Below, one piece after another: positions 1,656-34,599 of a stretch of 34,738 nucleotides of DNA. Location: the NCBI GenBank assembly GCA_018238625.1, contig JABCSY010000039.1, positions 1-34,738 on the forward strand. Direction: 5' to 3'. Numbering within the stretch: position 1 is the stretch's first letter; every line of letters starts with the position of its first letter. The position numbers were made by a program, and so were the translations under genes. The notes under the pieces are model-generated. The model did no database searches. It was not told where the DNA came from and was given only the letters and a program-made list of their open reading frames with translations. The DNA is from Promethearchaeota archaeon. Its GTDB lineage: Archaea; Asgardarchaeota; Lokiarchaeia; Sigyniarchaeales; SOKP01.

Positions 1656-3971
1656 TTAGAATTTAGAACTAATCCTCTTTTTAGGTAAAATCACCAAAGT
1701 AATTGCAATTCCAATTAAGGCAACTAGCTGAACGGTTAAAGTGTTCACAGTAATTAATGAGGGAATGGAAAGTATTTGCGAATATACAATTTTTCCAGGA
1801 GAAATTACTTGGATTGTATCTTTACCTCTGAATGTTTTCTCATCTTCTAGTATTCCTGTGATAATAATAGTTACTTCTTCTCCTACTTGCAGTTTTTCTT
1901 GAACATCAAATAGATCAAATTTAACCATAAGGTCAGGAATCCCATCCAAATCATAATCACCTATTTCGTTTGGCGTTAGTTTGGCGTTAATTTGATCATT
2001 TAAAAGGATGCTACTGATATCAATCTCGCTTATATCATATCCATGTCCAATTGGTAATTCGATATAAACTGTAACCCACTCTCCTGAACTTTGCAGATTT
2101 AAAGTATCTGGATCAAAATCTACTGTTGCTGGAATAATTGGAATTATTTCTGTTTCTGTCGAACTAATAATATAGGGTTGATTTGGAATTTCATCAATCT
2201 GAACATTATCGGCGAGAATTTTAGTTATCCCATCAGCAGAAACTTCAAGAGTGTAAGTATCTGTAGGGTGAGTTCCAAACTCTGGTATTACTGTTATTAA
2301 ATATTCACCAATCTTTTTCTCTGGAATAAGAATTATATCTTCAAAAGATCCGTCTCGATCAATGTCACTTTCAATATAATAAGATTCTGGAATTTCAGCT
2401 ATTTCTTTACTCCTACATAGGTTATTCGGATCGATAACAACTAAATCTACGGGAGAGTAGCTTATTATGCTTATTCCTTCTCCCCCATCTAGATATTCTT
2501 CTCGATGACCATGTATATCCATTGTATCTGCATCTAAGTATATGTCATCAGGAGAAACTGAATTATCTGCAAAAAACACACCCTCAACATCATCAATGTC
2601 TATATCTATATATTGATTAAAATACGCAGCCCACACTAACTCTGAGCAATACCAATTTGGTTCAGAAGGATCATATGATTTACCTACAATGTTTAGCGTA
2701 TAACTTGGTTTATTTTCTCCTTCTCTTTTTGCTTGTTGAAAAGCCCATTGAGCTGCTGCAATTCTTTGTTCCGATGAAGCCGATACAACGCGAAGCAGTG
2801 AAACATATTTTTCATTTGGAAAATCCCAATCAGATATATCATAATCGCTAATACCTCCATCCACTTCCCTTCGAGCTTCTACTACTAAACCATTTCCAAC
2901 ATATATCCCCGCGTGTGTCCAAAAAAGTCCTGCGATACTAAGCCAACCCTTGCTTCTACTTAATAGTATATCACCTGGCAGAATATCTCTTCTCCATATA
3001 GGATCTAGACATTCATTATCAATTATGGCATTTCCTATACAATCACTGGATTCTGAAATACATAGATAATTGTGTAAGAGATTATTAGAACAAATTAAAT
3101 TATAATTTGACCTGTCAAGACCAATACCAGCTGGACTATAATGAACTTCATTTTCTGAAACTTCATTAGCATCACTTAAACATAATTGTATCCCTGAGTG
3201 TTTATTTTCTTCTAAATAATTACCTGAAATTGTGCTATCACGACATCTCTCTAAATACATTCCATTCCAACCATTATTATTTACATAATTACCAGATACA
3301 ATGTTATTATCTGTCGTTCCTAGATTAGATTCAATAAGTATTCCGACTTGAGTATTATCATCAACAATATTTCCCGTAATAGTGCTGCGATCACATTCCA
3401 TAATAAACATCCCCCATCCATAATTATTATTTACAATATTATCAGAGATAATATTATCAACATCGAAATTCATAGATATTCCAGCCGCCACATTTTCATT
3501 CATAGTATTCCCTATAACTTTATTATTTTCTCCATAATTAACGACAATACCATTTTTGCTGTTGTAAGAACAGTCATTATCAATTAACTGCCCATTTTCT
3601 GTTCTTTGTAACCATATTGCTGTTTCTTTATTATATATAATACAATTTTCAATGATGAAGTAGGCATCAGAATTTTCAATTAAAATGCCGTATCCACTCC
3701 CATCACCAATAATAATTAAATCTCGAATCACATAGGGATCTAGAAGAATACCAGACCCATCGCATCGCCCTTCTAATCTAAAATCTATCCATTCTAGATT
3801 ACCGTTTATATGAATTTCAGCCGGTTCTTGACTAGATTTAAGTTTTGAGTTTGGTAAGGCTTCGTTTGAATTTACATTAACATTTAATGGAGATATCATT
3901 AAAAAAACAGAACCAAATAGTAAAACTAGCAGAAAACCATTTAATATTCTATTTTGAATTTTAAACTTCAT
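1656..3971 (-). CDS. Membrane-anchored surface protein: NosD/CASH beta-helix + permuted papain-like NlpC/P60 (YaeF/YiiX, C92) domain + acidic C-terminal domains
   Basis: N-terminal hydrophobic signal/TM segment; repeated 'N.I.GN....N...GI' beta-helix units; PGDILL...HAGIYVGNGLVVEA...WYCSELVWAAY (His before Cys); DxDxDG motifs (DIDRDG, DYDLDG); C-terminal TM followed by KKR. Confidence 0.88.
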   Translation of the reverse strand: MKFKIQNRILNGFLLVLLFGSVFLMISPLNVNVNSNEALPNSKLKSSQEPAEIHINGNLEWIDFRLEGRCDGSGILLDPYVIRDLIIIGDGSGYGILIENSDAYFIIENCIIYNKETAIWLQRTENGQLIDNDCSYNSKNGIVVNYGENNKVIGNTMNENVAAGISMNFDVDNIISDNIVNNNYGWGMFIMECDRSTITGNIVDDNTQVGILIESNLGTTDNNIVSGNYVNNNGWNGMYLERCRDSTISGNYLEENKHSGIQLCLSDANEVSENEVHYSPAGIGLDRSNYNLICSNNLLHNYLCISESSDCIGNAIIDNECLDPIWRRDILPGDILLSRSKGWLSIAGLFWTHAGIYVGNGLVVEARREVDGGISDYDISDWDFPNEKYVSLLRVVSASSEQRIAAAQWAFQQAKREGENKPSYTLNIVGKSYDPSEPNWYCSELVWAAYFNQYIDIDIDDVEGVFFADNSVSPDDIYLDADTMDIHGHREEYLDGGEGISIISYSPVDLVVIDPNNLCRSKEIAEIPESYYIESDIDRDGSFEDIILIPEKKIGEYLITVIPEFGTHPTDTYTLEVSADGITKILADNVQIDEIPNQPYIISSTETEIIPIIPATVDFDPDTLNLQSSGEWVTVYIELPIGHGYDISEIDISSILLNDQINAKLTPNEIGDYDLDGIPDLMVKFDLFDVQEKLQVGEEVTIIITGILEDEKTFRGKDTIQVISPGKIVYSQILSIPSLITVNTLTVQLVALIGIAITLVILPKKRISSKF

Positions 3972-4373: not shown

Positions 4374-6926
4374 ATGCCAAGAAAGAATACAAAGAAAAAA
4401 AATTCATTTTGCAGTAAAAACCCAACTTTTCATAGACATGATAATAGTATGTGTTCTAATGAAGAAATTTATATACCCCCTAATGATGAATTTTTCGAAG
4501 CTGATTTAGCTAATAAAATATCTAATATTGAAATCAATTCTAAGAATTCATTTCCTATAAAGATTTCCAGCACTTTAGATTCTCCTCAATCGTCTTTAGA
4601 TAAATATCTGCTACCAGAAGCTCAAAAATGTCTTCTACTTATTGTTGATCATGTAATTTCTTGTTATATGCAACGAGTTAATGAAAATAGAAAATTATTA
4701 CCTAAATATGATCCTAATTTACCTATATCAAAATTTATAGTAGATTTATCCAGTCTAGATCCAACATTAATTAATAACATTGTTAACAAAAAGGGAAAAA
4801 GCAAATATCAATGGTGGGGGTTTATTTACGAATGGGTAGATATGTGGACAAATGTCACTATGACTGGTAAAACTACTCGACCTATTCCAATTCGGAAATG
4901 GGAATATATATGGAGGGCTATTTATATACCCCCTAACATAACATCTTTAAAACAAAAATATAAAAATCATTTTTATAGAGATATTAATCATAAAATACAT
5001 TATGATAGTTTAAATATCAACCCAGAAATTAGAAACGATATTACAGAAGAAATTATTAAACAGATAAAGATTAACGGTTTAATTTTTCATCATTTAAGAA
5101 AAACCAATTTAATACCTCAAAACATTACTGGACTAAGAGATATTAGTCCTTATGATTATTCGTTAATTGAAACAGCTATAAATAATAGATTTCATTTTCG
5201 AATTTTAGAGCTAACATTTAGCAACAATTCTCTATCTGCTTGTGAAATTAGACGAGTTCATCACCAACAAGGATTAGGAATTGCGCTTAATAGAGATGAT
5301 AAATCATCGGGATCTAACTCTATCCATAATGCTATTATTTTAGATATTTTGAGGTGTGTAGCTAGCGGTTTAAAAACAAAACAAATTCATAAAGAATTAT
5401 TAAAAAAAGGCTATAACCTTGATGAAAGTACCATCAGTACCACATTAGAGGATGTTTTTGGAGGTATGCGGAAAGCTCAAGACAATCTTTTAAACTCCGT
5501 TTTAGATTTATTTTTTGAAAAATATGAACAACATTTAATTACAATTTACGATTTTTTTGAACGCGGTTTTAGCTCAGATATTATTGCTAGTTTGTCAGGT
5601 TTAGATAAAATTTTTGGAGACTCCGCCGAGATCGTCAGACGGGTTATTAAAAAAAAATATTCCCCACATTATAATAATTGTAAATCCTATACACAATTGC
5701 GTGCTATGGTATTTAAAGATTTATTTACGAAAGAAATAAAATTAGGTAAAAAAAATTATTCAGATCTTTTAGAAAAATTCGATGGATTTTTTGATCCTTC
5801 AGATCGGAATAAAACAAGAAGAATTTCTGATTATTTTATTACCGTTTTTGATGGAAAACTTCTTTCCGAAATTTTATTAGATTTGGGAAGAGAAAACTTT
5901 TCAGAAAATGAGGTCGTGCGTTTAAATCGACAAATTATAAATAAGGAAAAAGTCAAAAATCCAAATATATATCAAGATTTTATTAATAAGGTAGATCAAA
6001 AAGAGTTACTCCTAAAGGCACTCAAATTATTAAAAATAAAGATTTGGGACGAAGGCATCACCAACTATTCTAGTAATCAATTATGCTTAGATCTGAATTT
6101 TGGCAATATATTTCTTTTAACAACAAAAAATATTAAAAGCTCACCTAAAAAATTAATTAAAGAATTTATGGGTAAATCTTTTCATGAATTAATAGTCCAA
6201 GCATTAAATTTAAGAGATAAAGCTATTCATTTAGTTTATGATCACATTGATAAAATTGCTACGACAAGTGGCGTTTTTGGTTATAATTGTATAAATATTC
6301 TTACAGATTTAGGATTTGATCGGTTCTATACAAATAATACTTTAAAGACTAAACATAAACAAATAATTAATAAATTTTTGGGATTTTCGTCGTTTCAAGG
6401 AATAATTGATGTTGTCATTGAAGATCCCTTATATGAAGTATTCGATTTTACTGATATTAGTTCAGATTTTTATGTTAAAAATGTTCAAGAAATTTACGCT
6501 GAATCGTTAAAATTAGTAAGACATAATATTATAGAAAAAACGACACGGTATAATTCGTTTTTGTTATGTAAAGATCTTGCTTCAAAAGGTAAATTACATG
6601 GTTTTTCTAATAGGACTGTTAAATCTGATGCCGATTATATAATTCAGACTCTTTTTAAAATGTCTTTTGATCAGTTTAGAATAAAAGCATTGAATTTTCG
6701 AGAAAAAGCTTTAATATTAATTCATAAACATATAAATGAAATTGGAACTATTTTACCATCGGGACAACGGAGAGGAGCAACCTATAAAAAAAGTGATCTT
6801 TTACTGGATTTAGGATTTGATGAATTTCTTAGTAAAAAAAACATTATTTCTGAATCAAATCCAAAATTCGAGAGATATATAGGACTTACATTTGACGAAT
6901 TAGTAGAAATTGTTAAAAATAATTAA
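4374..6926 (+). CDS. Large hypothetical protein with a divergent GIY-YIG-like nuclease domain, HTH-like segments and four C-terminal ~68-aa repeats
   Basis: 850-aa ORF. GFIYEWVDMWTNVTMTGKTTRPIPIR and FHFRILE...ACEIRR...GIALN resemble GIY-YIG motifs; internal repeats are visible at aa ~548-850. The CDS is solid, the function tentative. Confidence 0.6.
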   Translation: MPRKNTKKKNSFCSKNPTFHRHDNSMCSNEEIYIPPNDEFFEADLANKISNIEINSKNSFPIKISSTLDSPQSSLDKYLLPEAQKCLLLIVDHVISCYMQRVNENRKLLPKYDPNLPISKFIVDLSSLDPTLINNIVNKKGKSKYQWWGFIYEWVDMWTNVTMTGKTTRPIPIRKWEYIWRAIYIPPNITSLKQKYKNHFYRDINHKIHYDSLNINPEIRNDITEEIIKQIKINGLIFHHLRKTNLIPQNITGLRDISPYDYSLIETAINNRFHFRILELTFSNNSLSACEIRRVHHQQGLGIALNRDDKSSGSNSIHNAIILDILRCVASGLKTKQIHKELLKKGYNLDESTISTTLEDVFGGMRKAQDNLLNSVLDLFFEKYEQHLITIYDFFERGFSSDIIASLSGLDKIFGDSAEIVRRVIKKKYSPHYNNCKSYTQLRAMVFKDLFTKEIKLGKKNYSDLLEKFDGFFDPSDRNKTRRISDYFITVFDGKLLSEILLDLGRENFSENEVVRLNRQIINKEKVKNPNIYQDFINKVDQKELLLKALKLLKIKIWDEGITNYSSNQLCLDLNFGNIFLLTTKNIKSSPKKLIKEFMGKSFHELIVQALNLRDKAIHLVYDHIDKIATTSGVFGYNCINILTDLGFDRFYTNNTLKTKHKQIINKFLGFSSFQGIIDVVIEDPLYEVFDFTDISSDFYVKNVQEIYAESLKLVRHNIIEKTTRYNSFLLCKDLASKGKLHGFSNRTVKSDADYIIQTLFKMSFDQFRIKALNFREKALILIHKHINEIGTILPSGQRRGATYKKSDLLLDLGFDEFLSKKNIISESNPKFERYIGLTFDELVEIVKNN

Positions 6927-14275: not shown

Positions 14276-15325
14276 CTATTCTTCTTCTTCGTCATCAACC
14301 GCATCTAAATTAATGCTTGAATCTGGTTTATTCTCGCTTATTGGCGTTACATATAATCTTTTCACAATTGCCCTAATAGTTTCTATTTTTAAACTATCAG
14401 GTGGCAAGCCTTTTTGGATGTCCTTTGCGAGCTTGTAAGCAAGTTCTATATATTTTAAATCTTCGAGAAATTCTACAATTTGTATCTTATAATCGTTATC
14501 ATCGATTCCAGATCCATATTCCAACAATTTTTCTTTCAATAAAATGTCGATTTTTTCAGTCCTCTCAAGGTAGCGTACTTTTTTAACTAATTGGTTGAAC
14601 GAATTAAAAATATTATATAATTCTGAACGGGGATAATCGTCTATATTTTTTAATATGTAAAATAAAAAAAGTTCTGCTTTTTCGTACCGTTTGATTTTTA
14701 AACTCGCTTCAAAGAGATCAAGAAGTGCTTGCTCGTAAAGAAATTTACTTTCGATATTTGGAACGATTTTATCGAAGATCCAATCAATTAAGTTTGGCTG
14801 ATTAAATCTTTCAGCAACATCAATTAAAAGTTTAATCACAGAAAAATAAAGCTTAGCATTTTCTGTTTTTGTAGCTGTTAGAAACGAAACTAACGCATAC
14901 TTGATTCGTCCCATAGCATCTTCTAAGTTAATAGGTGTTTCGGCGAACTTGTAAAATGCCGATTCTAAGATGGGTTGGATTTTTTCTCTATTTTTAAAAT
15001 CGTAAACAAAATATTCGCCCCAATTTGGACCAACTTTTTCAAGTTTTTCCACTCCTTTTTTCTCTGCTTTTTTAATTTTAACAGGTTTGGGAGTTCTCGA
15101 TTTTGATTCTTTAAACTTTTCTAACTGAACTTTTGCTTCTTCTTCAGATAAAAATTCAAGAATTATTTTGTTTTTCTCGCTTGGAACAATGATTTTAAAG
15201 AAGATTTCCTCGTCTTCGCTAAAGAGAGCTTCTCTTAATTCTTTTGGAAACGTTACACCTGTTTTAGTTTTTTTTATGATGTCCTCAAAAAAAATATCGT
15301 TAGATTTCTTCTCTTCTTGTGCCAT
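14276..15325 (-). CDS. Hypothetical protein: AbrB/MazE-like N-terminus + alpha-solenoid (TPR-like) C-terminus
   Basis: KKTKTGVTFPKELREAL...IFFKIIV...KIILE resembles a swapped-hairpin DNA-binding domain; the remainder is helical repeats with an acidic tail. Confidence 0.65.
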   Translation of the reverse strand: MAQEEKKSNDIFFEDIIKKTKTGVTFPKELREALFSEDEEIFFKIIVPSEKNKIILEFLSEEEAKVQLEKFKESKSRTPKPVKIKKAEKKGVEKLEKVGPNWGEYFVYDFKNREKIQPILESAFYKFAETPINLEDAMGRIKYALVSFLTATKTENAKLYFSVIKLLIDVAERFNQPNLIDWIFDKIVPNIESKFLYEQALLDLFEASLKIKRYEKAELFLFYILKNIDDYPRSELYNIFNSFNQLVKKVRYLERTEKIDILLKEKLLEYGSGIDDNDYKIQIVEFLEDLKYIELAYKLAKDIQKGLPPDSLKIETIRAIVKRLYVTPISENKPDSSINLDAVDDEEEE

Positions 15326-15439
15326 ATTTATCCTTAGAAAATATAATTTTTTAATTGTATGTTGTAATCCTGAGAAAATTTGTTAATTTTATTTGTGTAC
15401 AAACAATTTGGATTTGAGCTAAATTAGTTTCAAACGGTT

Positions 15440-16033
15440 TTACCCTGTTATATTTACTAATTCTACCCCTCTAACGGCGTAGTTTTTATCTATAAAACAG
15501 AGAATCGCATGTCCTTTATGGATATAAACAAGTGGAACTGGATATGATTCAGAGTCCTCAATGAAGCTTCTCTTGACTATGATCGGGAGTACTGTATTAC
15601 ATACTCTACATGGAACCATAATTTCATTGACCAAATCGAGAGAATTAAAGTCTTTAATTATTTTTTTAATCTCTTCTTTAAATGGATTGAACACAGTTAT
15701 GGAGAAGTTTCCATATTTTATGTAGGAATCAATGTCATATATTTCGTTAAAAATCTTCGAGACTTGTTCTATTAAGGCTTCCAACAATTGGTATTGAATC
15801 TCTGTATTAGAACCCGCCGTATATATTAAATTATTTAATCGTATATGGACAACTTTCAAATTACCTCTGAATAAATGAAAGAAAATATTACTAACTGGAT
15901 TCTGTTTAACAACATTTAAGTCTAAGATATAACTTTTCAATGATCTTGGGGGTTTCCATTCGAATATAGTAAATTCGTCTGTACTGATGTTTACGAACTC
16001 GAGGTTTTGCAGTATTTTCGTATAGTCTACCAT
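15440..16033 (-). CDS. Hypothetical protein: longin-like N-terminus + C-terminal CxxC/HxxH zinc-binding domain
   Basis: PCRVC...VYIHKGHAILCFIDKNYAVRG. The N-terminal part has strands followed by an amphipathic helix (LLEALIEQVSKIFNEIY). Confidence 0.6.
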   Translation of the reverse strand: MVDYTKILQNLEFVNISTDEFTIFEWKPPRSLKSYILDLNVVKQNPVSNIFFHLFRGNLKVVHIRLNNLIYTAGSNTEIQYQLLEALIEQVSKIFNEIYDIDSYIKYGNFSITVFNPFKEEIKKIIKDFNSLDLVNEIMVPCRVCNTVLPIIVKRSFIEDSESYPVPLVYIHKGHAILCFIDKNYAVRGVELVNITG

Positions 16034-16184: not shown

Positions 16185-17861
16185 TTATTGGATTGGATAT
16201 TTTCCGGATGTTTTTAGCGTTCTCATAATAGTTTTCATGTTGTTTACAGGTAATTCACGGGGGATTTCACATCCAAATGCCAACCAATATCCGCCTCCTT
16301 CAGCGGCTATCTTTAGTTTCTTAACACAGTCGTCAGAAACCCGTTTGGCATCAGCAATTGTGTGTAAATTATAATTTAGGTTGCCCATTATCGTAACTTC
16401 TCCTCGTAAAAGCTCTTTAGCTTTTACTAAATCAACTTGATAATCAAATTGAATTGCTCCTCCAGGATTAGTTTCTTTTGAAAAGTGTATACATTGAGGC
16501 ACATATCCACAACAATGAATTAGAGGGACCATCCCAAGTTTCTTAATCGCGTGGCACGCTTTTTTTTCCGGTTCTAAGCAAAATTCTTTGAAAAATGTGG
16601 GAGACATAAAATAAGCGGAGGTTTCTCCTACACCGATAATATCCGCACCCGCTTCATACATCGCTTTCGCGACCTCAATTTCGAAATCCGCATACCAATC
16701 CACAATTTCCTTAAATTCGTCAACATGATCAAAAATATAAAAGAGAGAGAGAGGATCAGCTCCAGATAACAAAGTAATCCCTTGAAATGGTCCTTCTGTC
16801 CAGCCAATTATAGGGACTTCGTCCCCAACTTCCTTTTTAGCTAGCTCTATAGCTTTAATTGACTCTGTTAACCTCCCAGCTTTATTTAAGTCCGGCATCT
16901 TTAGTTTTTGAAAATCTTTATACATAGTTGAGTGATTAAGTATTGGTTTTACAATTCGAGGGACATCGTCGTGAGGAAATTCGACTTTTGCTCCTAAAGC
17001 GCCCGCATACATTCCTACATCTGAAGAGAAGCATAAAGCGTCCCATCCAAAAGCTTTGTAAGCCTTCATTTGTCCTTCTACAAATTTCTCTGCTTTACTT
17101 ACATATGCAGAAAAAGGAATTTCAGCAAATTTTGCTGTGAATGTCTGAGCAAAGGGCATAAATGGAACCCTATCTGGTTCTTTATGCTTTACAGAGGTCA
17201 TAACGCGATCGTATGATGTCATTTCATCTTTTAAATCTTTAGAATATTCTTTTACTGTTTTCATCAATTCATTTACATCTTTAACGTATGCATCTACGTT
17301 GTATTTCGCAGCCATTGCTGGAGAACCCGCAGGACCGCTCAAAATAGTCCTTATTTTGTGGCGCACTCCAAGCTTCCACAATTCGTTTTCTAATTTTTCG
17401 ACTTGATCTTTTGATTGCATGAGATAAATCGCTGATGCTAGTATTCTAGCGTTAGATTCTTTAACTACTTGAGCAATTTTCTCGGGAGATACATCCGACC
17501 CCGCGTTGATTACTTCATACCCGTTAGCTTTAAGATTTGCTGATACAATATTAGTACCAATCGTCCAGGGTCCACCCATGACTCCAAGGACTATCTTCTT
17601 TTCGGGTTCTTTAGGTTCGTCAGATAAACCCAACGACTGTATTCCTACTTCAAAAGCTCCAGCTGATTTTATAATGTCGTCAAGATACATTCCTTTAATT
17701 TTATACTTCTTACTTACATCAGATAAGCCAGCTGATAAAGCTTGTATGATGTCTTCGCGTGAATCTCCTTGTCGAGAGGCCTTTCTTACTAGTTTTCCGA
17801 CACTTTTATAATCGCCCTTTGAAGTTGCTTCCGTTATTTGCTCAAGATTATCGTTTGACAT
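16185..17861 (-). CDS. Fusion of a corrinoid-protein-like domain (cap + B12-binding) and an MtaA/CmuA-type methyltransferase (uroporphyrinogen decarboxylase fold)
   Basis: The N-terminal ~210 aa resemble MtaC/MtmC (LSAGLSDVSKKY...YLDDII...IGTNIVSANLKANGYEVINAGSDVSPEKI). The C-terminal part has MTSYDRV...EPDRVP, EGPF, IHCCG, IMGNL and GCEIP. Confidence 0.9.
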   Translation of the reverse strand: MSNDNLEQITEATSKGDYKSVGKLVRKASRQGDSREDIIQALSAGLSDVSKKYKIKGMYLDDIIKSAGAFEVGIQSLGLSDEPKEPEKKIVLGVMGGPWTIGTNIVSANLKANGYEVINAGSDVSPEKIAQVVKESNARILASAIYLMQSKDQVEKLENELWKLGVRHKIRTILSGPAGSPAMAAKYNVDAYVKDVNELMKTVKEYSKDLKDEMTSYDRVMTSVKHKEPDRVPFMPFAQTFTAKFAEIPFSAYVSKAEKFVEGQMKAYKAFGWDALCFSSDVGMYAGALGAKVEFPHDDVPRIVKPILNHSTMYKDFQKLKMPDLNKAGRLTESIKAIELAKKEVGDEVPIIGWTEGPFQGITLLSGADPLSLFYIFDHVDEFKEIVDWYADFEIEVAKAMYEAGADIIGVGETSAYFMSPTFFKEFCLEPEKKACHAIKKLGMVPLIHCCGYVPQCIHFSKETNPGGAIQFDYQVDLVKAKELLRGEVTIMGNLNYNLHTIADAKRVSDDCVKKLKIAAEGGGYWLAFGCEIPRELPVNNMKTIMRTLKTSGKYPIQ

Positions 17862-18058: not shown

Positions 18059-19450
18059 ATGAGTAATGAAGAAAAATCAGAATATTCCAAAAAAAAAGGG
18101 ATATTATTTGGTATCGGACAATTTTCTGATGCCATTGCTTCACAGATGTTTACAATTTACGTTTTCACATTCTACTACGCTGTAGTGGGTTTAGACGTTA
18201 ATCTGATTACGCTTGGATTTATATTATGGTCTATTTGGAACGCCATTAACGATCCTCTGCTAGGTGCTTTATCAGATCGGACGAAAACTAAATGGGGTAG
18301 AAGAACACCATACATAATTGCGTCTATTATCCCATTATGCATTATAATAGTATTATTATGGACACCCCCAACTAGTACACCGATCGCCTCTTTCATATAT
18401 TTCCTAGTTGTTATGGCATTATTTGACACATTCTATACGATGTACGACCTAAACTATTGCGCCTTATTTCCAGAGATGTTTCAAGGTTTAAGCGAAAGGG
18501 CAAAAGCGAGTGCCGTTAAACAAATTTTTACCGTGCTTGGTTTGCTTTTTGCTTTTCTATTGCCTACATTTATAATTACTGATTTAACGGATAGCGCTTA
18601 TATTACTGAATATATGTACGCTGGAATAGTGATGAGCGTTATAGTCTTGGTAGGAGCAATTATAATGATAAAGTTTGGAATAAAAGAAAGAACAGAATTT
18701 TCCGAGGATTACAAAACGGCACCATCGATAATTTCCTCGCTCAAGTTCTCGTTGAAAAACAAATCTTTTAGGATATTTATTATTATGAATGTATCATATT
18801 GGTACGTCGTAGGAATGCTTCCAATGGTCGCGCCCCTTTACGGAAAGTCTGTTTTGGGCATAAGTGATGCAATGCTACTCGGTATATTGCTAGGATTAGC
18901 TTTTATTTCAGCAGCGTTTTTTATGGCATTTTGGCGCTTTATCATTAATAAATTCGGAATGAAAAAGGGAGTTATGATCTCAATGGTTGTTTTCATAGTT
19001 TCTTTAGCCCCGTTTATGTTTATTTTCGATATAGCGACTGCTTTTATCGCGTTTATTTTTGTAGGAATAGGAATTTCAGGGGCAATATATTTTGGAGACA
19101 TCCTTCTTGCGGCAATTATTGACGAAGACGAATTAACAACTGGTACGAGACGAGATGGTGGTTATTACGGCATAAACGCTTTACTTACCAAATTATCTAC
19201 GATTTTAGTAATTCTTAGTATTAATGTTGTTTTCAATAGCGTCGGATGGGCCACCTTTGACCCAGTAGGAACGACTGAATACACAATTTTTGGACTTAGA
19301 AGTTTAATGTTCATTTTTCCCGCTGTTGCGTTAATAATAGGATTAATAGCAATTAGAAAATTCCCGCTAACAAAAGAAAAGTATGAAGACATAAAAGTTA
19401 AGCTTGAAGAACTACACGACCAAAAACGAGAGAAAACTCGTAGTAATTAA
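18059..19450 (+). CDS. MFS transporter, glycoside-pentoside-hexuronide (MelB/GPH) family
   Basis: WNAINDPLLGALSDRTKTKWGRRTPYI, IIDEDELTTGTRRDGGYYG; about 12 TM segments. Confidence 0.95.
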   Translation: MSNEEKSEYSKKKGILFGIGQFSDAIASQMFTIYVFTFYYAVVGLDVNLITLGFILWSIWNAINDPLLGALSDRTKTKWGRRTPYIIASIIPLCIIIVLLWTPPTSTPIASFIYFLVVMALFDTFYTMYDLNYCALFPEMFQGLSERAKASAVKQIFTVLGLLFAFLLPTFIITDLTDSAYITEYMYAGIVMSVIVLVGAIIMIKFGIKERTEFSEDYKTAPSIISSLKFSLKNKSFRIFIIMNVSYWYVVGMLPMVAPLYGKSVLGISDAMLLGILLGLAFISAAFFMAFWRFIINKFGMKKGVMISMVVFIVSLAPFMFIFDIATAFIAFIFVGIGISGAIYFGDILLAAIIDEDELTTGTRRDGGYYGINALLTKLSTILVILSINVVFNSVGWATFDPVGTTEYTIFGLRSLMFIFPAVALIIGLIAIRKFPLTKEKYEDIKVKLEELHDQKREKTRSN

Positions 19451-19515: not shown

Positions 19516-20346
19516 ATGAGCTTCGCAAAGATCAACGGTTTAAAATTGTCTTATCAGGTTTACGGAATAGGTTTCCCCGTAATCTTTATTCACGGTTATG
19601 GTGCAAAAAAAGAAATATGGAGAACTCAAGTAGTAGATATAAGTAAAGAATTCCAAACAATTACATTTGACATTCGCGGAACTGGAAAGTCAGATCGACC
19701 TAATATCCCATACACCATGAAAATGCTAGCTGAAGATGTGAAGGGCTTAATGGATTTTATTGGCGTTGAAAAAGTTCATTTAATAGGTCGTTCCTTTGGT
19801 GGAATGATTGCCCAAAATTTTGTACTACAATATCCTGAAAAAGTCGAAAAATTAGTGTTGATCGCTACTAATTTTGGTCGGACTGATACAGATTGGGTCG
19901 AGATTCCAAAAAAAGGGCGCCTTGAGGAGGTTGAGACGATAAAACTTGACCCATCAAAAGCTTTCAAGCAAAAATCGCGTTGGGTCTTTCACGTAAAGTT
20001 CAGAAAAGAGATGGAAGCTAATCCAAGCAAAAAATTCTTCGACATTTTTTCTATGGAAGATTTAATCAGAGAAAGTACAATCAATCCATCAAGACCCCAA
20101 GACATAATCAATCAAGCAGAGGCAATGAAAACACATTATACGCTAGAAAGATTACATGAAATTAAAAATAAAACTCTTTTGATAGCAGCTTCTCACGATC
20201 GACAAACGCCCGTTTCAGTTATGACTGAAATGCTTAAAAAAATCCCTAATAGCGAATTAAAAGTTATAAGTGAAGCAGGTCATTTTATGACGCTTTCAAG
20301 AGCATCGGAAGTTAACGATATAATTCTAAACTTTTTAAAAAATTAA
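19516..20346 (+). CDS. Alpha/beta-fold hydrolase
   Basis: FIHGYG, DIRGTGKS, nucleophile elbow GRSFGG, HDRQTP (Asp), AGHF (His). Confidence 0.95.
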   Translation: MSFAKINGLKLSYQVYGIGFPVIFIHGYGAKKEIWRTQVVDISKEFQTITFDIRGTGKSDRPNIPYTMKMLAEDVKGLMDFIGVEKVHLIGRSFGGMIAQNFVLQYPEKVEKLVLIATNFGRTDTDWVEIPKKGRLEEVETIKLDPSKAFKQKSRWVFHVKFRKEMEANPSKKFFDIFSMEDLIRESTINPSRPQDIINQAEAMKTHYTLERLHEIKNKTLLIAASHDRQTPVSVMTEMLKKIPNSELKVISEAGHFMTLSRASEVNDIILNFLKN

Positions 20347-20459: not shown

Positions 20460-22163
20460 GTGTTTAAAATGAAGGATTATTCAGATTGGGAACCGATTTA
20501 CGATTATGAAAATGAATCTCCGTATCTCGAAAATCACGAACGTCCATGGTTAAAGTATAGGGAGTCAAACATCCCAAAATCGATAAAATTTGACCCTATC
20601 CCGGTTCACGAATTTATTAAATTAGCAGCTAAACAATTCCCTAATAACGTGTGTGTTTATCACTTAGCAACTGATAAAAAATACACTTATCGCGAATTAA
20701 TTTATATTTCTGATAGATTAGCAAACGCTTTGGTACAATCGGGAGTAAAGAAGGGAGATCAAGTTGGAATTATGACAGGTAATTGTCCTGAATTTTTGTT
20801 TTGCGTTCTGGGTATAATGGAAACGGGAGCTATAGTAGTACCAATCAATCCCCTACTTAAAGAAGGCGACGTTGCTCACATTGTTAAAGAATCTGGAAAT
20901 ATGAATACGGTATTTGTGCATAAAGCGAACTTTAGAACTATAAAAAAGGTTCAAAAGAAAATAAAATTAGAAAATGTAATATTACTGCAAGCGGAAGCAG
21001 CTAAAGAAGGTACTATAACTTTCGAGGAATTTATAGAAGGTATAGCCCCAATCCAGCCAGATATAGAAATTGACCCCTCTAACGATCTAGCTGCATTATT
21101 GTTTACTGGGGGTACTACGGGATTACCAAAAGGGGTTATGTTAACTCATACTAATTTCGTTTCTTGTGCGCTTTCAACTCTGTTAATGGCAGGAGAAACA
21201 GAAGAAAGTGAGAGTACTTTTGGTAAAACCGTTAATTTATCAGTTATACCTTTATGTCATTCTTTTGGTTTTCTAGTTTTGATAGCAGCTTCTTTTGGAG
21301 CGGCCATGCTTGTAATGTTTCCCTCATTCAACGCTCCTGATATTCTAGAAGCAATTGAATATTATCGAGTTACTAATTACATTGGGGTTCCTGTTATGTA
21401 TCAAATGTTAATAAACTCCCCTGATTTTACAGAGCGAGACCTTTCTAGCCTTGAAGAAGCAAACTCTGGTTCGGCAGCTTTAGCTCCTGAATTGGCTAAA
21501 AAATGGGAAAAAACTGTTGGTACTAAAGTAGGTCAAGGTTTTGGCTTAACTGAAACATCGCCAATTACACATATAGCAGCAAAGTGGATGCCTGAAATTA
21601 TATCAAAGAGCATAGGCGTACCCATCATTGATACGGATGCAAAGATTGTTAATCCCGAAACCTTAGAAGAACTTAAACCGAACGAGATTGGGGAATTATT
21701 GATAAAAGGACCTCAAGTAATGAAAGGATACTGGAAAAGCCCCGAGGAAACTAATAAAACTATAAAAGACGGTTGGTTAAGGACGGGAGACCTCGCAAGG
21801 ATGGATGACCGAGGATATTTCTATATCGAAGGCCGAACTAAAGATATAATTAAATATAAAGGATACAAGGTTATGCCCCGAGAAGTCGAAGAAAAATTGT
21901 ACGAACACCCAGCTATTTTAGAGGCTGGAGTTGTATCCGCTCCAGACCCAAACATCGGCGAAACAATTAAAGCGTATGTAGTGTTAAAACCAGAATACAA
22001 AGATGGAAAAATTACTGAGCGAGATATTCTTGAATGGGCCAAAGAACGGTTAGCAGGATATAAATATCCTCGTAAAATTGAGTTTATAAATGTTTTACCA
22101 AGAACTACTGTAGGAAAAATATTCAGACGAAAATTAAGAGAAAGAGCCTTCAAAGAAAATTAA
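20460..22163 (+). CDS. fadD: Long-chain fatty acid--CoA ligase (AMP-binding, FadD-like)
   Basis: FTGGTTGLPKG, GFGLTETSP, GPQVMKGYW, WLRTGDL, GRTKD, LPRTTVGK. Confidence 0.92.
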   Translation: MFKMKDYSDWEPIYDYENESPYLENHERPWLKYRESNIPKSIKFDPIPVHEFIKLAAKQFPNNVCVYHLATDKKYTYRELIYISDRLANALVQSGVKKGDQVGIMTGNCPEFLFCVLGIMETGAIVVPINPLLKEGDVAHIVKESGNMNTVFVHKANFRTIKKVQKKIKLENVILLQAEAAKEGTITFEEFIEGIAPIQPDIEIDPSNDLAALLFTGGTTGLPKGVMLTHTNFVSCALSTLLMAGETEESESTFGKTVNLSVIPLCHSFGFLVLIAASFGAAMLVMFPSFNAPDILEAIEYYRVTNYIGVPVMYQMLINSPDFTERDLSSLEEANSGSAALAPELAKKWEKTVGTKVGQGFGLTETSPITHIAAKWMPEIISKSIGVPIIDTDAKIVNPETLEELKPNEIGELLIKGPQVMKGYWKSPEETNKTIKDGWLRTGDLARMDDRGYFYIEGRTKDIIKYKGYKVMPREVEEKLYEHPAILEAGVVSAPDPNIGETIKAYVVLKPEYKDGKITERDILEWAKERLAGYKYPRKIEFINVLPRTTVGKIFRRKLRERAFKEN

Positions 22164-22287: not shown

Positions 22288-23703
22288 ATGAATAAAGAAG
22301 ATATTTGTTTTATGTCCGCTTGCGATATGGTTGATGCGATAAAAAACCAAGAACTAACATCCGAAGAAATAACCGAAACAATTATTGAAAGAATTGAGAA
22401 AATAAACCCAATTATTAACGCGTATTGTACTCCTACTTTCGATTTGGCAAGAGAGATGGCGAAAAAAGCCGACGATGCGGCTAAAAAAGGTGCCAAATTA
22501 GGTAAATTGAACGGTGTTCCAACATCAATTAAAGATCTTGCAATGACTAAGGGAATTAGAACGACTTTTGGATCGAAAATATACGAACATTTTATCCCAG
22601 ATGAAGATGTTACTTATGTAAAAAGACTTAGAGAGGCAGGTTGTGTTATTCTAGGAAAAACTAACACCCCAGAATTTGGGTTTAAAGGAGCTACAGATAA
22701 TCTAATTTTTGGTATCACACGCAATCCATGGAATCTAAAAAAGACTTCTGGAGGATCGAGTGGCGGGGCTGCTGCCTCAGTCGCTTCTGGGATGGGGCCA
22801 TTAGCGCAAGGGTCCGATGGAGGGGGCTCTATTAGGCATCCCGCTGGTTTTTGCGGAGTATATGGCATTAAACCAAGTTTTGGTCGAGTAGCTATATATC
22901 CTAGAAAAACACTTATGGCTCAAACTTTATCTGTTGCTGGGCCTATTGTAAGATATGTAAAAGACGCGGCGCTGATGTTGGATGTTATGAAAGGCTTTTA
23001 CGAAGGAGACAGATTTTCAATACCATCAGATAATATCAAATATTTAGAGTTAATGAACGAAAAACCTGAAAAATTAAAAATTGGCTAAACCTTAGACTTA
23101 GGCTTCGCGAAAGTTATTGACCCTGAAGTAGAAAACTCAATATTAAATTCGATAACTAAATTTGAGGAATTTGGTTGGAGTATTGAAAAAGTCAAAATGA
23201 AGTTAAAACCTGAAATGCCATTTTATACTTTTTGGATTTCAATGCTTGCTTATGATTTGAAACAAAAATTAAAAGAATGGGAAGACAAAATGGATCCCGA
23301 TATAGTAAAAATGGTCAAAGGAGGATTAGGATACGATGGGATGGCGCTACCAAAAGCGTTCGCTGCTCGTAACAAAGTACATGATATAATTTTCAAAATT
23401 TTTCAAGAATTCGATATTTTAATAACCCCTACAACGGCTGTTCCAGCTTTTGATTTAGGTATAATGTTTCCCAAAAAAATTAACAACATTAATGTTTCAC
23501 CCACAGGTTGGCAACCATTTTCGTTCCCTTTCAATTTATCAGGAAACCCCGCCGCAACGATTCCATGTGGATGGTCTAGCGAGGGATTACCTATCGGGAT
23601 GCAGATTGTCGGAAGAAGATTTGACGATTTAAAAGTGTTACAAGTTTCAAAAGCTTTTGAAGAAATAGCACCTTGGCAAGATAAAAAGCCTAACTTTGAT
23701 TAA
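22288..23703 (+). pseudogene. Amidase-signature family enzyme interrupted by one in-frame TAA at 23086-23088 (471 codons if repaired)
   Basis: Track ORFs 22288-23088 and 23197-23703 are in the same frame, and the gap reads KLKIG*TLDLGFAKVIDPEV... with no other stop. SIKD, GGSSGG and GSDGGGSIR catalytic motifs are intact. Confidence 0.9.
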
Positions 23704-32178: not shown

Positions 32179-33081
32179 GTGAAAATTTTTATGAAAGAAC
32201 TACAAACTGAAGGTCTCACTTTTTATATAGTAGATGTCTTTGCTGAATATAGATACTCGGGAAACCAGCTAGCAGTAGTTATTAGTGGAAATAAGCTCTC
32301 GGATGAAGAGATGCAATTAATAGCTAAAGAAATGAACTTTTCAGAAACAAGCTTTATTACGTCCGTCGAAAATTACGACGTTAGGATATTCACTCCTAAA
32401 GTAGAGCTACCATTCGCTGGACACCCCACGATTGGAACGGCATATGTATTGCAGCAAGAATTTATAAAATCGAAAACAAAAACGCTTTCTTTAAACTTAA
32501 AGATTGGTCAAATTGCCATATTATTTAAATACAAAGGGGAGATTACTTCTGAGATTTGGATGGAACACAAGGAGCCAACATTCAACGGTTTTTTCGCTCC
32601 CGATTTAGTAGCGAGCGTTTTGAACATAAATGAAAGCGATATTGACGGAAGATTTAGAATTCAAGGCGTTTCTACTGGGGTTCCTACGATCATTGTGCCT
32701 TTAAAGTCGTTAGATGCCGTAAAACGCGTAAAAATTGATCTCGAAAAGTATTACGCTTTAATCGAAAATACTCAAGCTAAGACCATCTTGGTATTTTGTC
32801 CCGAAACTTATAACAAAAAAAACGATTTAAATGTTCGGTACTTTGCTGATTTTTACGGTGTTCCAGAGGACCCCGCAACAGGCTCTTCAAACGGTTGTTT
32901 GGCCGCCTATTTGGTAAAACACGAATATTTTGGCAAGAAAAGGATTGATATACGCGTCGAGCAAGGCTATGAAATAGGGAGAGAATCTCTACTTCTATTA
33001 AGAGCTGAAGAAAAGGAAGGAAAATATTTTGTAGCCGTAGGCGGTAAAGCTATAATAGTAGCTAAAGGAAAATTAATGTGA
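32179..33081 (+). CDS. PhzF-family isomerase/epimerase
   Basis: VDVF, GNQLAV, EMNFSETSF, RIFTPKVELPFAGHPTIG, EDPATGS, EQG. Confidence 0.95.
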   Translation: MKIFMKELQTEGLTFYIVDVFAEYRYSGNQLAVVISGNKLSDEEMQLIAKEMNFSETSFITSVENYDVRIFTPKVELPFAGHPTIGTAYVLQQEFIKSKTKTLSLNLKIGQIAILFKYKGEITSEIWMEHKEPTFNGFFAPDLVASVLNINESDIDGRFRIQGVSTGVPTIIVPLKSLDAVKRVKIDLEKYYALIENTQAKTILVFCPETYNKKNDLNVRYFADFYGVPEDPATGSSNGCLAAYLVKHEYFGKKRIDIRVEQGYEIGRESLLLLRAEEKEGKYFVAVGGKAIIVAKGKLM

Positions 33082-33167
33082 AAGCTACTAGCTATATAAA
33101 TATTTCAGAGGATCGTTAAATCGTTAAGCTTATCTTCGCTTAGCTAAGAAAAATAAAAAAAAGTTAA

Positions 33168-33184
33168 GAGCGATTAATTCGCTC
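33168..33184. terminator. Hairpin GAGCGA-TTAAT-TCGCTC between convergent genes
   Basis: 6-bp GC-rich stem, with an A-run upstream and T-rich sequence downstream. Confidence 0.5.
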
Positions 33185-33210
33185 GTTATTTTATTGATAG
33201 TTTTTTTGCT

Positions 33211-34599
33211 CTATAAATTCTGTTCTTTTATTATCTTTTGATTCTCGGCAACTTTCTCAGGAGTTAGGTCGTACCACTTCCAAAATACGAATGTACCAAC
33301 CAAAATACATATCATTGGCACTACAGCTAAATGTATGTGAATACCTAATTTGGCAGCATCACCATATGGATCAGCAGAAAAGTTGGTGAGGACATGGGCT
33401 AATGTGAAACTTAGAGCTTGGAAAAAAATTGCTAAGCGTCCAAAAAATTGTTGGAACCCAGCATAAACGCCCTCTTGTCGTCTCTTAAGCACAACTATAG
33501 ACTCATCTACAACATCGGCTAAAACAGGGGCAATCATGGCCCAATAACCACCAATTGAAAAACCCCAAATTATCATGGCAATAATTATAGCCAATAATTC
33601 TTCAAGAAATATTAATGGTATTGTAAAAATGCCCATTAGTAATCCACAATATACCATAATCTTTTTATTATTGTTTGTCTTGTGAGCCGCCATGACCCAG
33701 AAGGGCGTTGAGATTATAGCACCTATAAGAAAACCGGCAAATATTGGAGTGGTTGCTTTTTCGCCTACGCCTAATATATTATCTACTAAATACGGAACTG
33801 AAGCGGTCATTGATTGTACTAACGTACGATATAAGGTGTATGACACAATAAAAGCAATAAAACTCTTTTGTTTCAAAGCAGCACCCAAGGATTTAAAAAA
33901 CGGAGGTCCTTTTTCTCGAGTTTCATATGTCTCTAAATATCGATCAACTGCGTCTTGGTCGTCTCTTACGCCCGGAATTGCCAAACCTATAGCTATCAAT
34001 CCAACGATAATAACAGCTCCTCCTTGAACCACATAAGTTGAAGGGAATCCTATTGTAAAAAAAAGAGGAGGCAAAATCGCACCGAGAGCTACACCTACAA
34101 GACCTACGGGTATTTGTAACCCCGTAGCAGTTCTCCGTTCTTTAACTGAACGAAACTTATCAGGGAACAGGGCTGAAAAGTTAACCCAAAAAATTGAGTT
34201 AAATGTGTCAAATAGACAAGTTGTGAAAACTAGCCATAAAAATAGTATCCAAGCGCCTGATTCAGGATTTACCGCAGGTGGCATAAAAATAAGTATATAA
34301 CTAAAAATAAAGGGAACTGCTCCCATTAGAATCCAAGGAAATCTTCGCCCCCATTTTTTCGTAAATTTAAAGGGTCTGTTAGTTAAATAGCCAACGAGAG
34401 GGTCGTTAATTGCGTTATAAACGGCAAATATAAAGAATCCTAAACCTACTAATACCACATTTAAGCCGAGTTCTATCTCGTAAAAATAAAAGGCCCAAGT
34501 ACCAAATGCCATCGCTAAAAACTCGTTCATAAAGTTTCCGAAGCCATAAGAAGCCATGTTTTTTTTTGAATGTCTTACTTCACTTGTTTCTTTTGTCAA
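33211..34599 (-). CDS. MFS transporter, GPH/MelB family (paralog of 18059-19450)
   Basis: YNAINDPLVG...KKWGRRFPWI, LADVVDE...RRQEGVYAG; about 12 TM segments. Confidence 0.95.
   Translation of the reverse strand: MTKETSEVRHSKKNMASYGFGNFMNEFLAMAFGTWAFYFYEIELGLNVVLVGLGFFIFAVYNAINDPLVGYLTNRPFKFTKKWGRRFPWILMGAVPFIFSYILIFMPPAVNPESGAWILFLWLVFTTCLFDTFNSIFWVNFSALFPDKFRSVKERRTATGLQIPVGLVGVALGAILPPLFFTIGFPSTYVVQGGAVIIVGLIAIGLAIPGVRDDQDAVDRYLETYETREKGPPFFKSLGAALKQKSFIAFIVSYTLYRTLVQSMTASVPYLVDNILGVGEKATTPIFAGFLIGAIISTPFWVMAAHKTNNNKKIMVYCGLLMGIFTIPLIFLEELLAIIIAMIIWGFSIGGYWAMIAPVLADVVDESIVVLKRRQEGVYAGFQQFFGRLAIFFQALSFTLAHVLTNFSADPYGDAAKLGIHIHLAVVPMICILVGTFVFWKWYDLTPEKVAENQKIIKEQNL

Follow-up and report, generated by a model that had tools for sequence, protein, structure and literature searches.

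How does a corrinoid methyltransferase work when the residue expected to hold its cobalt from below has been replaced throughout a protein family? In the textbook picture, B12 proteins that transfer methyl groups use their lower axial His to switch between Co(I) and methyl-Co(III). The window analysed here, the whole 34,738-nucleotide stretch of contig JABCSY010000039.1 from the Promethearchaeota archaeon assembly GCA_018238625.1, contains at 16185..17861 on the minus strand a gene, P0001, for a 558-aa protein that joins a corrinoid domain to an MtaA-like methyltransferase. A tryptophan, Trp99 (codon CCA as read on the plus strand, 17565-17567), stands in this protein at the position of the cobalt-ligating His. 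This replacement had been proposed from the letters alone (the sequence-only reading, below); the observation itself is confirmed by the coordinates and by HMMER and MAFFT alignments, and the interpretation attached to it is partly supported. What is established is the domain architecture of the protein, the presence of an invariant Trp where the His is expected, the preserved spacing of the motifs, the zinc-type signature and the gene context. The reading that we favour, with somewhat better than even confidence, is that P0001 is a single-chain corrinoid methyltransferase which operates 'His-off' above a Trp floor and acts on an imported methylated compound.

The gene was defined by its intact open reading frame (ORF) and translation, by Pfam and NCBIfam domain matches and by an AlphaFold2 model (mean predicted local distance difference test score 86.4, predicted template modelling (TM) score 0.81), and the domains follow one another in the order corrinoid cap, B12-type Rossmann domain and MtaA/URO-D methyltransferase, all features of the gene lying on the minus strand. 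The helical cap (residues 6-74, 17640..17846) matches B12-binding_2 (PF02607) with a borderline 23.1 bits against a cut-off of 23, and the Rossmann-type B12-binding domain (residues 88-200, 17262..17600) is placed by Foldseek, by conservation and by a PF02310 match at residues 91-191 (39.2 bits, cut-off 32.1). The methyltransferase domain of MtaA/URO-D fold (residues 213-558, 16188..17225) matches PF01208 over residues 216-550 (191 bits, cut-off 23.9); MtaA 4ay7 is its closest solved relative by sequence (HMMER, E 7.5e-18), and Foldseek aligned the barrel of the model with MtaA 4ay7/4ay8 at TM scores of 0.87-0.88 on target. For the N-terminal half, sequence and fold together give 1y80, 7xcn and 4jgi as the closest solved relatives; Foldseek matched 4jgi_B, 7xcn_N and 3ezx (CobDH/MttC type), and an ESM Atlas search with residues 1-208 returned solely ordinary corrinoid-protein clusters (score 0.90). 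The narrower NCBIfam models all score below their cut-offs on the fusion: TIGR01463 (MtaA/CmuA) reaches 151.3 bits of 235.4, TIGR02370 (cognate corrinoid protein) 82.2 of 215.3, and the equivalog models for MtaA and MtbA stay far under theirs (104 vs 400 and 102 vs 600 bits). An assignment as a CdmB-type haloalkane methyltransferase, as described in part of PMC13222342, was rejected, the match being weak and partial (E 4e-5, residues 217-281).

The 'His loop' of the fusion, G93-G102 (GVMGGPWTIG, 17556..17585), was located by HMMER and MAFFT alignments and column counts. Trp99 lies opposite the cobalt-ligating His when the fusion is aligned by HMMER with either of two solved corrinoid proteins, 1y80 and 7xcn. 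The MAFFT alignment, which comprised ten family members, ten His-bearing corrinoid domains (five from the host genome, three from distant fusions, one from Thiodictyon and one from Peptoclostridium) and CmuA, puts it in the His column as well, and CmuA has Gln there. In these alignments the loop has one residue fewer than the canonical loop. As printed in an excerpt of PMC4915002, the cobalamin-binding fingerprint is DxHxxG-41/42-SxL-26/28-GG; that of the fusion is xxWxxG-41-A144/I145/Y146-28-S175/G176, the canonical spacing being exact and each signature motif changed. The downstream alterations of S.L and GG that the sequence-only reading had also pointed out are thus A144-I145-Y146 in place of SxL (17424..17432, from alignments and family columns) and S175-G176-P177 in place of the GG motif (17331..17339, from alignments and in 45/45 family sequences), at the published distances.

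A scan of the genome collection found 47 loci of this fusion and yielded, with the window, 45 full-length sequences (34 archaeal, from Asgard archaea, and 11 bacterial); L054 and L055, contig-end fragments without the N-terminus, and L034, which is divided into two ORFs, were left out of this set. Residues G97, P98, W99, T100, I101, Y146 and S175-G176-P177 are identical in all 45 at identities down to 43%, and G102 is Ser in a single sequence (L029). The N-terminal piece of the split copy L034 likewise carries GPW. An isolated decay, a sequencing error or a pseudogene has therefore next to no probability and was rejected: the reading frame is intact, and the GPW motif is conserved in independent assemblies from two domains of life and in 24/24 database proteins aligned. 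Hence the conservation in orthologs on which the sequence-only reading depended was found. Moreover, no column of residues 1-212 holds a universal His among the 45 sequences, the nearest being H168 (41/45, with Gln or Asn in the other 4/45) and H113 (25/45), and no alternative conserved axial His is available.

The remainder of the putative cofactor site is constrained in the same way. In the cap domain M58 and L60-D61 are invariant within a GMYLD segment. The Ser of SxL is Ala or Gly at position 144 in every family sequence, and the invariant Tyr146 takes the column of the MetH Leu that is packed below the His. MetH lines its nucleotide-tail pocket with Gly802, Ser804, Gly833 and Gly834, according to a passage of PMC9204698, and these positions stay small in the family (Ala 44/45 with one Thr, Ala/Gly 45/45, Ser 45/45 and Gly 45/45, respectively). 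Over the 45 sequences the mean identity of the Rossmann domain is 0.73 among archaea, 0.64 among bacteria and 0.47 between archaea and bacteria, and the corresponding values for the methyltransferase domain are 0.75, 0.69 and 0.50; in archaea and bacteria alike, the Rossmann domain is no less constrained than the catalytic one.

The family is well separated from other proteins. A word-indexed search returned 186 relatives, among which the full-length ones are titled Lokiarchaeota/Promethearchaeota, Hod-, Thor-, Hermod- and Freyrarchaeum, together with bacteria at ~49% identity. In the exhaustive representative search one full-length cluster representative (44% identity, E 7e-147), which reads DGPW, and some fragments were followed, after a gap, by stand-alone MtaA-like proteins at ~33% identity (E 6e-48 and weaker). 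Distant fusions retain the His, both those of the same domain order (P0197, GDVHDLG, and P0239, GDFHDIG, at 24-26% identity to the fusion) and one of the opposite order (P0161, HDLHDIG). A quick maximum-likelihood tree of methyltransferase domains with 55 rows (44 from the family, one truncated row having been dropped, eight stand-alone proteins and three other fusions) recovers the Trp-for-His family as one clade on a long stem with a Shimodaira-Hasegawa-type approximate likelihood ratio support of 100, divided into a bacterial and an archaeal subclade with support of 99 each. The stand-alone MtaA-like proteins are the nearest neighbours of this clade, and the three other fusions fall elsewhere in the tree on long, unreliable branches. 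Copies from records titled Thor-, Hod- and Hermodarchaeota (L021, L027, L028, L037, L040 and others) nest among the Promethearchaeota copies at 72-75% identity and with the same synteny, which may reflect inconsistent phylum labels given by submitters or movement of the gene between lineages.

We consider a cobamide to be probably still bound by the N-terminal half, because the ligand loop and the tail-pocket positions are its most conserved parts, because small residues persist along the path of the nucleotide tail, because the motif spacing is exact, and because CmuA offers a precedent. CmuA is the methyltransferase I and corrinoid protein of chloromethane dehalogenase (described in passages of PMC13222342 and PMC3621897), and the copy on plasmid pCMU01 of Methylorubrum extorquens CM4 (L056) reads GNTQDIG, with neither Asp nor His; His-less corrinoid/MtaA fusions thus have a precedent. 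What lies beneath the cobalt could still differ from the floor that we favour. A bound corrinoid might have another lower ligand, namely a water that Tyr146 holds, the phenolate of Tyr146, His168 or, in a base-on form, the cofactor's own base, with Trp99 merely packing on the ring or the substrate. Tyr146 is invariant and aligned with the Leu under the His in MetH, H168 is present in most of the family, and in OxsB a water is held by an Asn of the same downstream motif (PMC9204698). However, H168 is not universal since Gln or Asn replaces it in four sequences, the Rossmann-type binders reviewed in the relevant sections of PMC4915002 and PMC9204698 take cobalamin in its extended base-off form, and a residue as bulky as Trp, placed exactly where the His would be, would fill the site. 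We therefore hold another lower ligand to be improbable.

The methyltransferase half has retained its signature. H449-C450-C451 (16509..16517) aligns with H-I-C of MtaA 4ay7 and forms the H-x-C half of a putative zinc site, and G530-C531-E532 (16266..16274), aligned with G-C-G of 4ay7, supplies its distal Cys. The H, C and C of 4ay7 to which H449, C451 and C531 correspond are the zinc ligands of MtaA. H449 and C451 are found in 45/45 family sequences and C450 in 41/45, whereas C531 and E532 could be counted in the 44 sequences that cover the site and are present in 44/44; the retention of HCC (His449) and GCE (Cys531) described by the sequence-only reading is borne out, and extends across the family.

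From these features we infer that a cofactor is bound, what Trp99 does, which kind of compound is the substrate and which way the methyl group is passed, as follows. The cap and Rossmann module would bind a cobamide in an extended base-off form that is permanently 'His-off', and Trp99, presented on a rigid Gly-Pro-Trp loop, would make up with Tyr146 a non-coordinating aromatic floor beneath the cobalt. Such a floor would shut out a sixth ligand and solvent and favour four-coordinate Co(I), and it would improve methyl-Co(III) as a methyl donor. In the MtaA-like TIM barrel the His449/Cys451/Cys531 zinc site would activate the heteroatom of a small methylated compound, which the neighbouring GPH-type transporter would import. 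The methyl group would go to the enzyme's own cobalt and subsequently to an MtrH-like methyltransferase or to a thiol. An S-methyl compound, for example methanethiol or methylmercaptopropionate, is a first guess for the substrate, and an O-methyl compound or a halomethane is possible.

The host makes heavy use of corrinoid methyl transfer, which counts for the favoured reading. The Asgard genome (4.29 Mb, 97.9% complete, 7.6% contaminated; the window itself carries Asgard hallmarks such as an Arf/Ras-family GTPase) contains eight matches to the B12-binding domain, five of which are open frames of ~213-243 aa with a His motif (GD[IVN]H[DS]IG or DVHSIG), and two of the His-bearing corrinoid genes, on contigs C76 and C42, have URO-D genes next downstream. 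It further contains 16 URO-D matches, one RACo/RamA-type activase, one MtrH and one CobS, and P0001 is the only protein of this network that is both fused and His-less. McrA and ComA gave no match in the 97.9% complete genome; coenzyme M is therefore an unlikely partner, and as far as searched the host is no methanogen and has a large network of corrinoid-dependent methyl transfer, in line with the non-methanogen that the sequence-only reading had thought probable.

A housekeeping role was also weighed, in which the fusion, as methionine synthase or some other thiol methylase of the cell, would act on homocysteine. The zinc-type H-x-C...C signature suits thiol activation, MetE (PF01717) has no match in the host genome, and MetE structures occur among the distant Foldseek matches of the fusion model. 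A better candidate exists, however, on contig C199 (21229-22496, L001), where the gene of a canonical His-bearing corrinoid protein (224 aa, GDIHSIG) stands immediately before one for a homocysteine S-methyltransferase domain (298 aa); this pair has the look of a MetH-like methionine synthase split in two, in a genome lacking a MetE match. The fusion gene, in turn, is accessory: of the 301 genomes sampled from the phylum, 25 have it (host included), as do 12 of 90 high-quality genomes, 21 of 68 genomes of the host family and 6 of 27 other genomes of the host genus. Such patchy presence is the wrong pattern for a housekeeping enzyme, and the MarR/transporter operons described below look catabolic. 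A methionine synthase is thus very unlikely.

The neighbourhood of the gene bears on the substrate. A divergent gene 197 bp upstream of the fusion gene (18059..19450, plus strand) encodes a GPH-family (MFS_2) transporter (PF13347, 208 bits; TIGR00792, 169 bits, under its cut-off), the candidate importer of the substrate. If the window is included, an MFS_2 gene occupies this divergent upstream position in 18 of 36 archaeal loci, and an alpha/beta hydrolase does so in eight others. Six bacterial loci (Syntrophomonadaceae, Spirochaetota and 'Deltaproteobacteria') have an MFS_2/GPH gene downstream of the fusion on the same strand, at gaps of -3 to 109 bp. Members of a small-protein cluster lie directly upstream of the fusion in the bacterial loci L045, L050 and L051; the L045 protein is a MarR by Pfam and the L050 copy has no Pfam match, so that the Pfam call covers the L045 copy alone. 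In Abyssobacteria a sugar-type ATP-binding cassette (ABC) transporter (binding protein, two permeases and a MalK-like ATPase) lies downstream of the fusion and an alpha/beta hydrolase upstream, and in the Syntrophomonadaceae locus L055 a methionine-gamma-lyase-like gene follows the fusion. The transporter context favours an imported polar compound and a role of the methyltransferase 1 (MT1) type that feeds MtrH. The sequence-only reading had envisaged transfer to a thiol acceptor; a thiol is a possible acceptor, and the same context fits MT1-type substrate demethylation feeding an MtrH-like enzyme equally well or better. The use of a transporter with corrinoid methyltransferases in mtpCAP, discussed below, also counts for the reading that we favour.

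Several points weigh against that reading. In the other 18 archaeal loci the DNA covered by the scan contains no MFS_2 gene, several of them having too little upstream flank to tell, and the archaeal loci are of shared ancestry and therefore amount to approximately one observation of transporter linkage. The MFS_2 neighbours of bacterial and archaeal fusions are only 25% identical, compared with 28% for an MFS_2 paralog elsewhere in the window, so the transporter link holds at the family level only; co-transfer of fusion and transporter between archaea and bacteria is for this reason not supported. No RACo, MtrH or second methyltransferase gene adjoins the fusion in the annotated loci, and the assignment of a substrate is a guess by analogy. 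On the side of the cofactor, all three classical cobalamin motifs are altered in the family, CmuA being altered less, the Ser with which MetH hydrogen-bonds the benzimidazole base is missing, and the TIGR02370 score of the fusion lies below the 101-219 bits that other fusions reach.

The altered motifs and the low scores (39 bits for PF02310, 82 against a cut-off of 215 for TIGR02370) also speak for a serious rival, a cofactor-less pseudo-corrinoid domain with a docking, regulatory or scaffolding function, whose MtaA-like partner domain would trade methyl groups with separate His-bearing corrinoid proteins, and the five canonical corrinoid proteins in the genome are possible partners for it. 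In such a domain the ligand loop and tail pocket should relax, yet GPWTI, Y146 and SGP are identical in 45/45 sequences and the small pocket residues and the spacing are kept; its conservation equals that of the catalytic domain across two domains of life, and CmuA, in the parts of the reports cited above, pairs a His-less domain of the same kind with corrinoid-dependent activity. We regard a cofactor-less domain as a minority possibility of real weight. The sequence-only reading had put forward both a His-off corrinoid and a cofactor-less docking domain: the His-less state that it assumed holds family-wide, and conservation tilts the choice between the two toward cofactor binding.

Beyond the transporter, the archaeal loci are syntenic, and a variable island beside the fusion mixes amidase, acyl-CoA ligase, alpha/beta hydrolase and MFS_2 genes. 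In the window this island includes an alpha/beta-fold hydrolase of esterase or lactonase type (19516..20346, plus strand; PF00561, the best NCBIfam match being PcaD-like and under its cut-off), whose cluster recurs beside the fusion or the transporter in 16 loci (15 archaeal and one bacterial); a second type of alpha/beta hydrolase is found near the bacterial fusion copies in L042 and L050. The next member is an AMP-forming acyl-CoA ligase (20460..22163, plus strand; PF00501, NF004837 438 bits vs a cut-off of 476), whose cluster is present in six loci, one of them bacterial (L051). An amidase gene (PF01425) at 22288-23703 on the plus strand is broken by an in-frame TAA at 23086-23088, with the frame continuing beyond; in related loci its relatives each form one ORF of 471-489 aa, and the TAA could be a nonsense mutation, the mark of a pseudogene or an assembly error.

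On the other side of the fusion, two conserved genes for proteins of 197 and 349 aa that have no Pfam or NCBIfam match (14276-16033, minus strand) always follow it on the same strand in 21-24 archaeal loci, and past them come genes for a coiled-coil protein rich in K and E, a protein of 318 aa and an Arf/Ras/Roc-family GTPase of 505 aa, in a stable Asgard synteny block. Farther away in the window, a 771-aa protein with right-handed beta-helix/NosD repeats and a C92 permuted papain-like amidase domain is encoded at 1656-3971 on the minus strand; its gene adjoins an 850-aa ORF without a family match (4374-6926, plus strand). The second MFS_2/GPH transporter, the paralog already mentioned, lies within 32179-34599 and adjoins a PhzF-family gene. 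Two of the His-bearing relatives used for alignment come from plasmids with arrangements of their own. On that of the purple sulfur bacterium Thiodictyon syntrophicum (L057, 2890-6223) a corrinoid protein, a URO-D methyltransferase and an ASKHA (RACo-like activase) gene stand in a row, and the methyltransferase has H-T-A in place of H-x-C. On that of Peptoclostridium acidaminophilum (L058, 1-4641) a carbohydrate ABC transporter and a DUF4091 protein immediately precede a His-bearing corrinoid and URO-D gene pair, an arrangement that hints at a possible action of corrinoid/URO-D systems on methylated sugars in other anaerobes.

A clade spread over Asgard archaea and at least five phyla of bacteria, in which the His has become an invariant Trp and the geometry of the scaffold is kept, is a natural experiment on how a protein tunes the reactivity of cobalt, and it points to an undescribed way of tuning B12 chemistry. 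The family also flags an uncharacterised entry point of methyl groups into the carbon or sulfur metabolism of sediment Asgard archaea. A bolder view, which we advance tentatively and think rather doubtful, is that these proteins form a distinct class of corrinoid methyltransferase in which cobalt is never ligated from below and a Trp/Tyr floor replaces the His-Asp-Ser triad; the Co(II)/Co(I) potential would then be raised, less ATP-driven reactivation would be needed, and the methyl groups of an imported metabolite would enter the Wood-Ljungdahl pathway. If so, Asgard archaea and several anaerobic bacterial phyla would strip methyl groups from an unrecognised imported S-methyl or O-methyl carboxylate or glycoside.

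How the family relates to known corrinoid systems can be seen first in MtaC, MttC, MtmC and CobDH (TIGR02370; PF02607 and PF02310), which share with the fusion the cap, the Rossmann fold and an identical motif spacing. These proteins carry D-x-H, SxL and GG, whereas the fusion has G-P-W in a shorter loop, AxY and SG. The lower His is kept in the MtaC/MetH-type corrinoid domains compared (1y80, 7xcn and CobDH), the exceptions found being CmuA, with Gln, and the corrinoid iron-sulfur proteins. CobDH (4jgi) was tried as a His-off protein and rejected, because a passage of PMC3727330 describes it as binding cobalamin base-off/His-on through DxHxxG (His102).

CmuA resembles the fusion in combining an MtaA/URO-D-type methyltransferase with a cap/Rossmann corrinoid domain, in lacking the axial His and in having the H-x-C...C signature (HTC ... 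GCD in CmuA). It differs in having the methyltransferase first and the corrinoid domain second, in having Gln where the His would be and Asn where the Asp would be, in its normal loop length, in keeping G-x-S-x-M and GG, and in coming from an aerobic methylotroph whose gaseous substrate needs no transporter; the two are ~24% identical, in two tblastn pieces. The sequence-only reading was right about the opposite domain order and overlooked that CmuA lacks the His too. It also passed over a second set of fusions, MtsD, MtsF (CmtA) and MtsH of Methanosarcina acetivorans, which join a corrinoid domain to a methyltransferase 2 (MT2) domain and act in methyl-sulfide metabolism, according to bioRxiv 10.1101/548461 and PMC7374477. 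Compared by these descriptions, in which the domain order is not stated, they likewise have a corrinoid and an MtaA-type methyltransferase on one polypeptide; unlike the fusion, whose host has no McrA or ComA match, they work with coenzyme M in methanogens. The mtpCAP genes of M. acetivorans, which serve the use of methylmercaptopropionate, encode a corrinoid protein, an MtaA-family methyltransferase and a major-facilitator transporter (an excerpt of PMC7374477), and MtpA is characterised in part of 10.1101/548461 as a substrate:cob(I)alamin MT1. By description these are the same components as one functional unit, but in separate genes and in a methanogen.

A parallel to the proposed floor comes from an unrelated class, the radical S-adenosylmethionine (SAM) enzymes that depend on cobalamin, in which a domain with an iron-sulfur cluster and SAM is the catalytic partner. 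In TokK, Trp76 is the residue nearest to cobalt and prevents ligation, Arg69 does likewise in TsrM, and a missing lower ligand is held to favour four-coordinate Co(I), according to PMC9204698. A bulky non-coordinating side chain under the cobalt, which excludes solvent and a sixth ligand, would thus have the role that we propose for W99 and Y146. In TokK and TsrM, however, the blocking residue comes from the beta3-alpha3 'downstream' motif and the His loop is longer, whereas in the fusion a Trp occupies the His position itself in a shortened loop. We found no description of a Trp-for-His corrinoid domain in open-access text (CC-licensed PMC articles and bioRxiv, supplements excluded). Judged by its sequences, the family adds a Trp variant to the already known His-less corrinoid/MtaA fusions.

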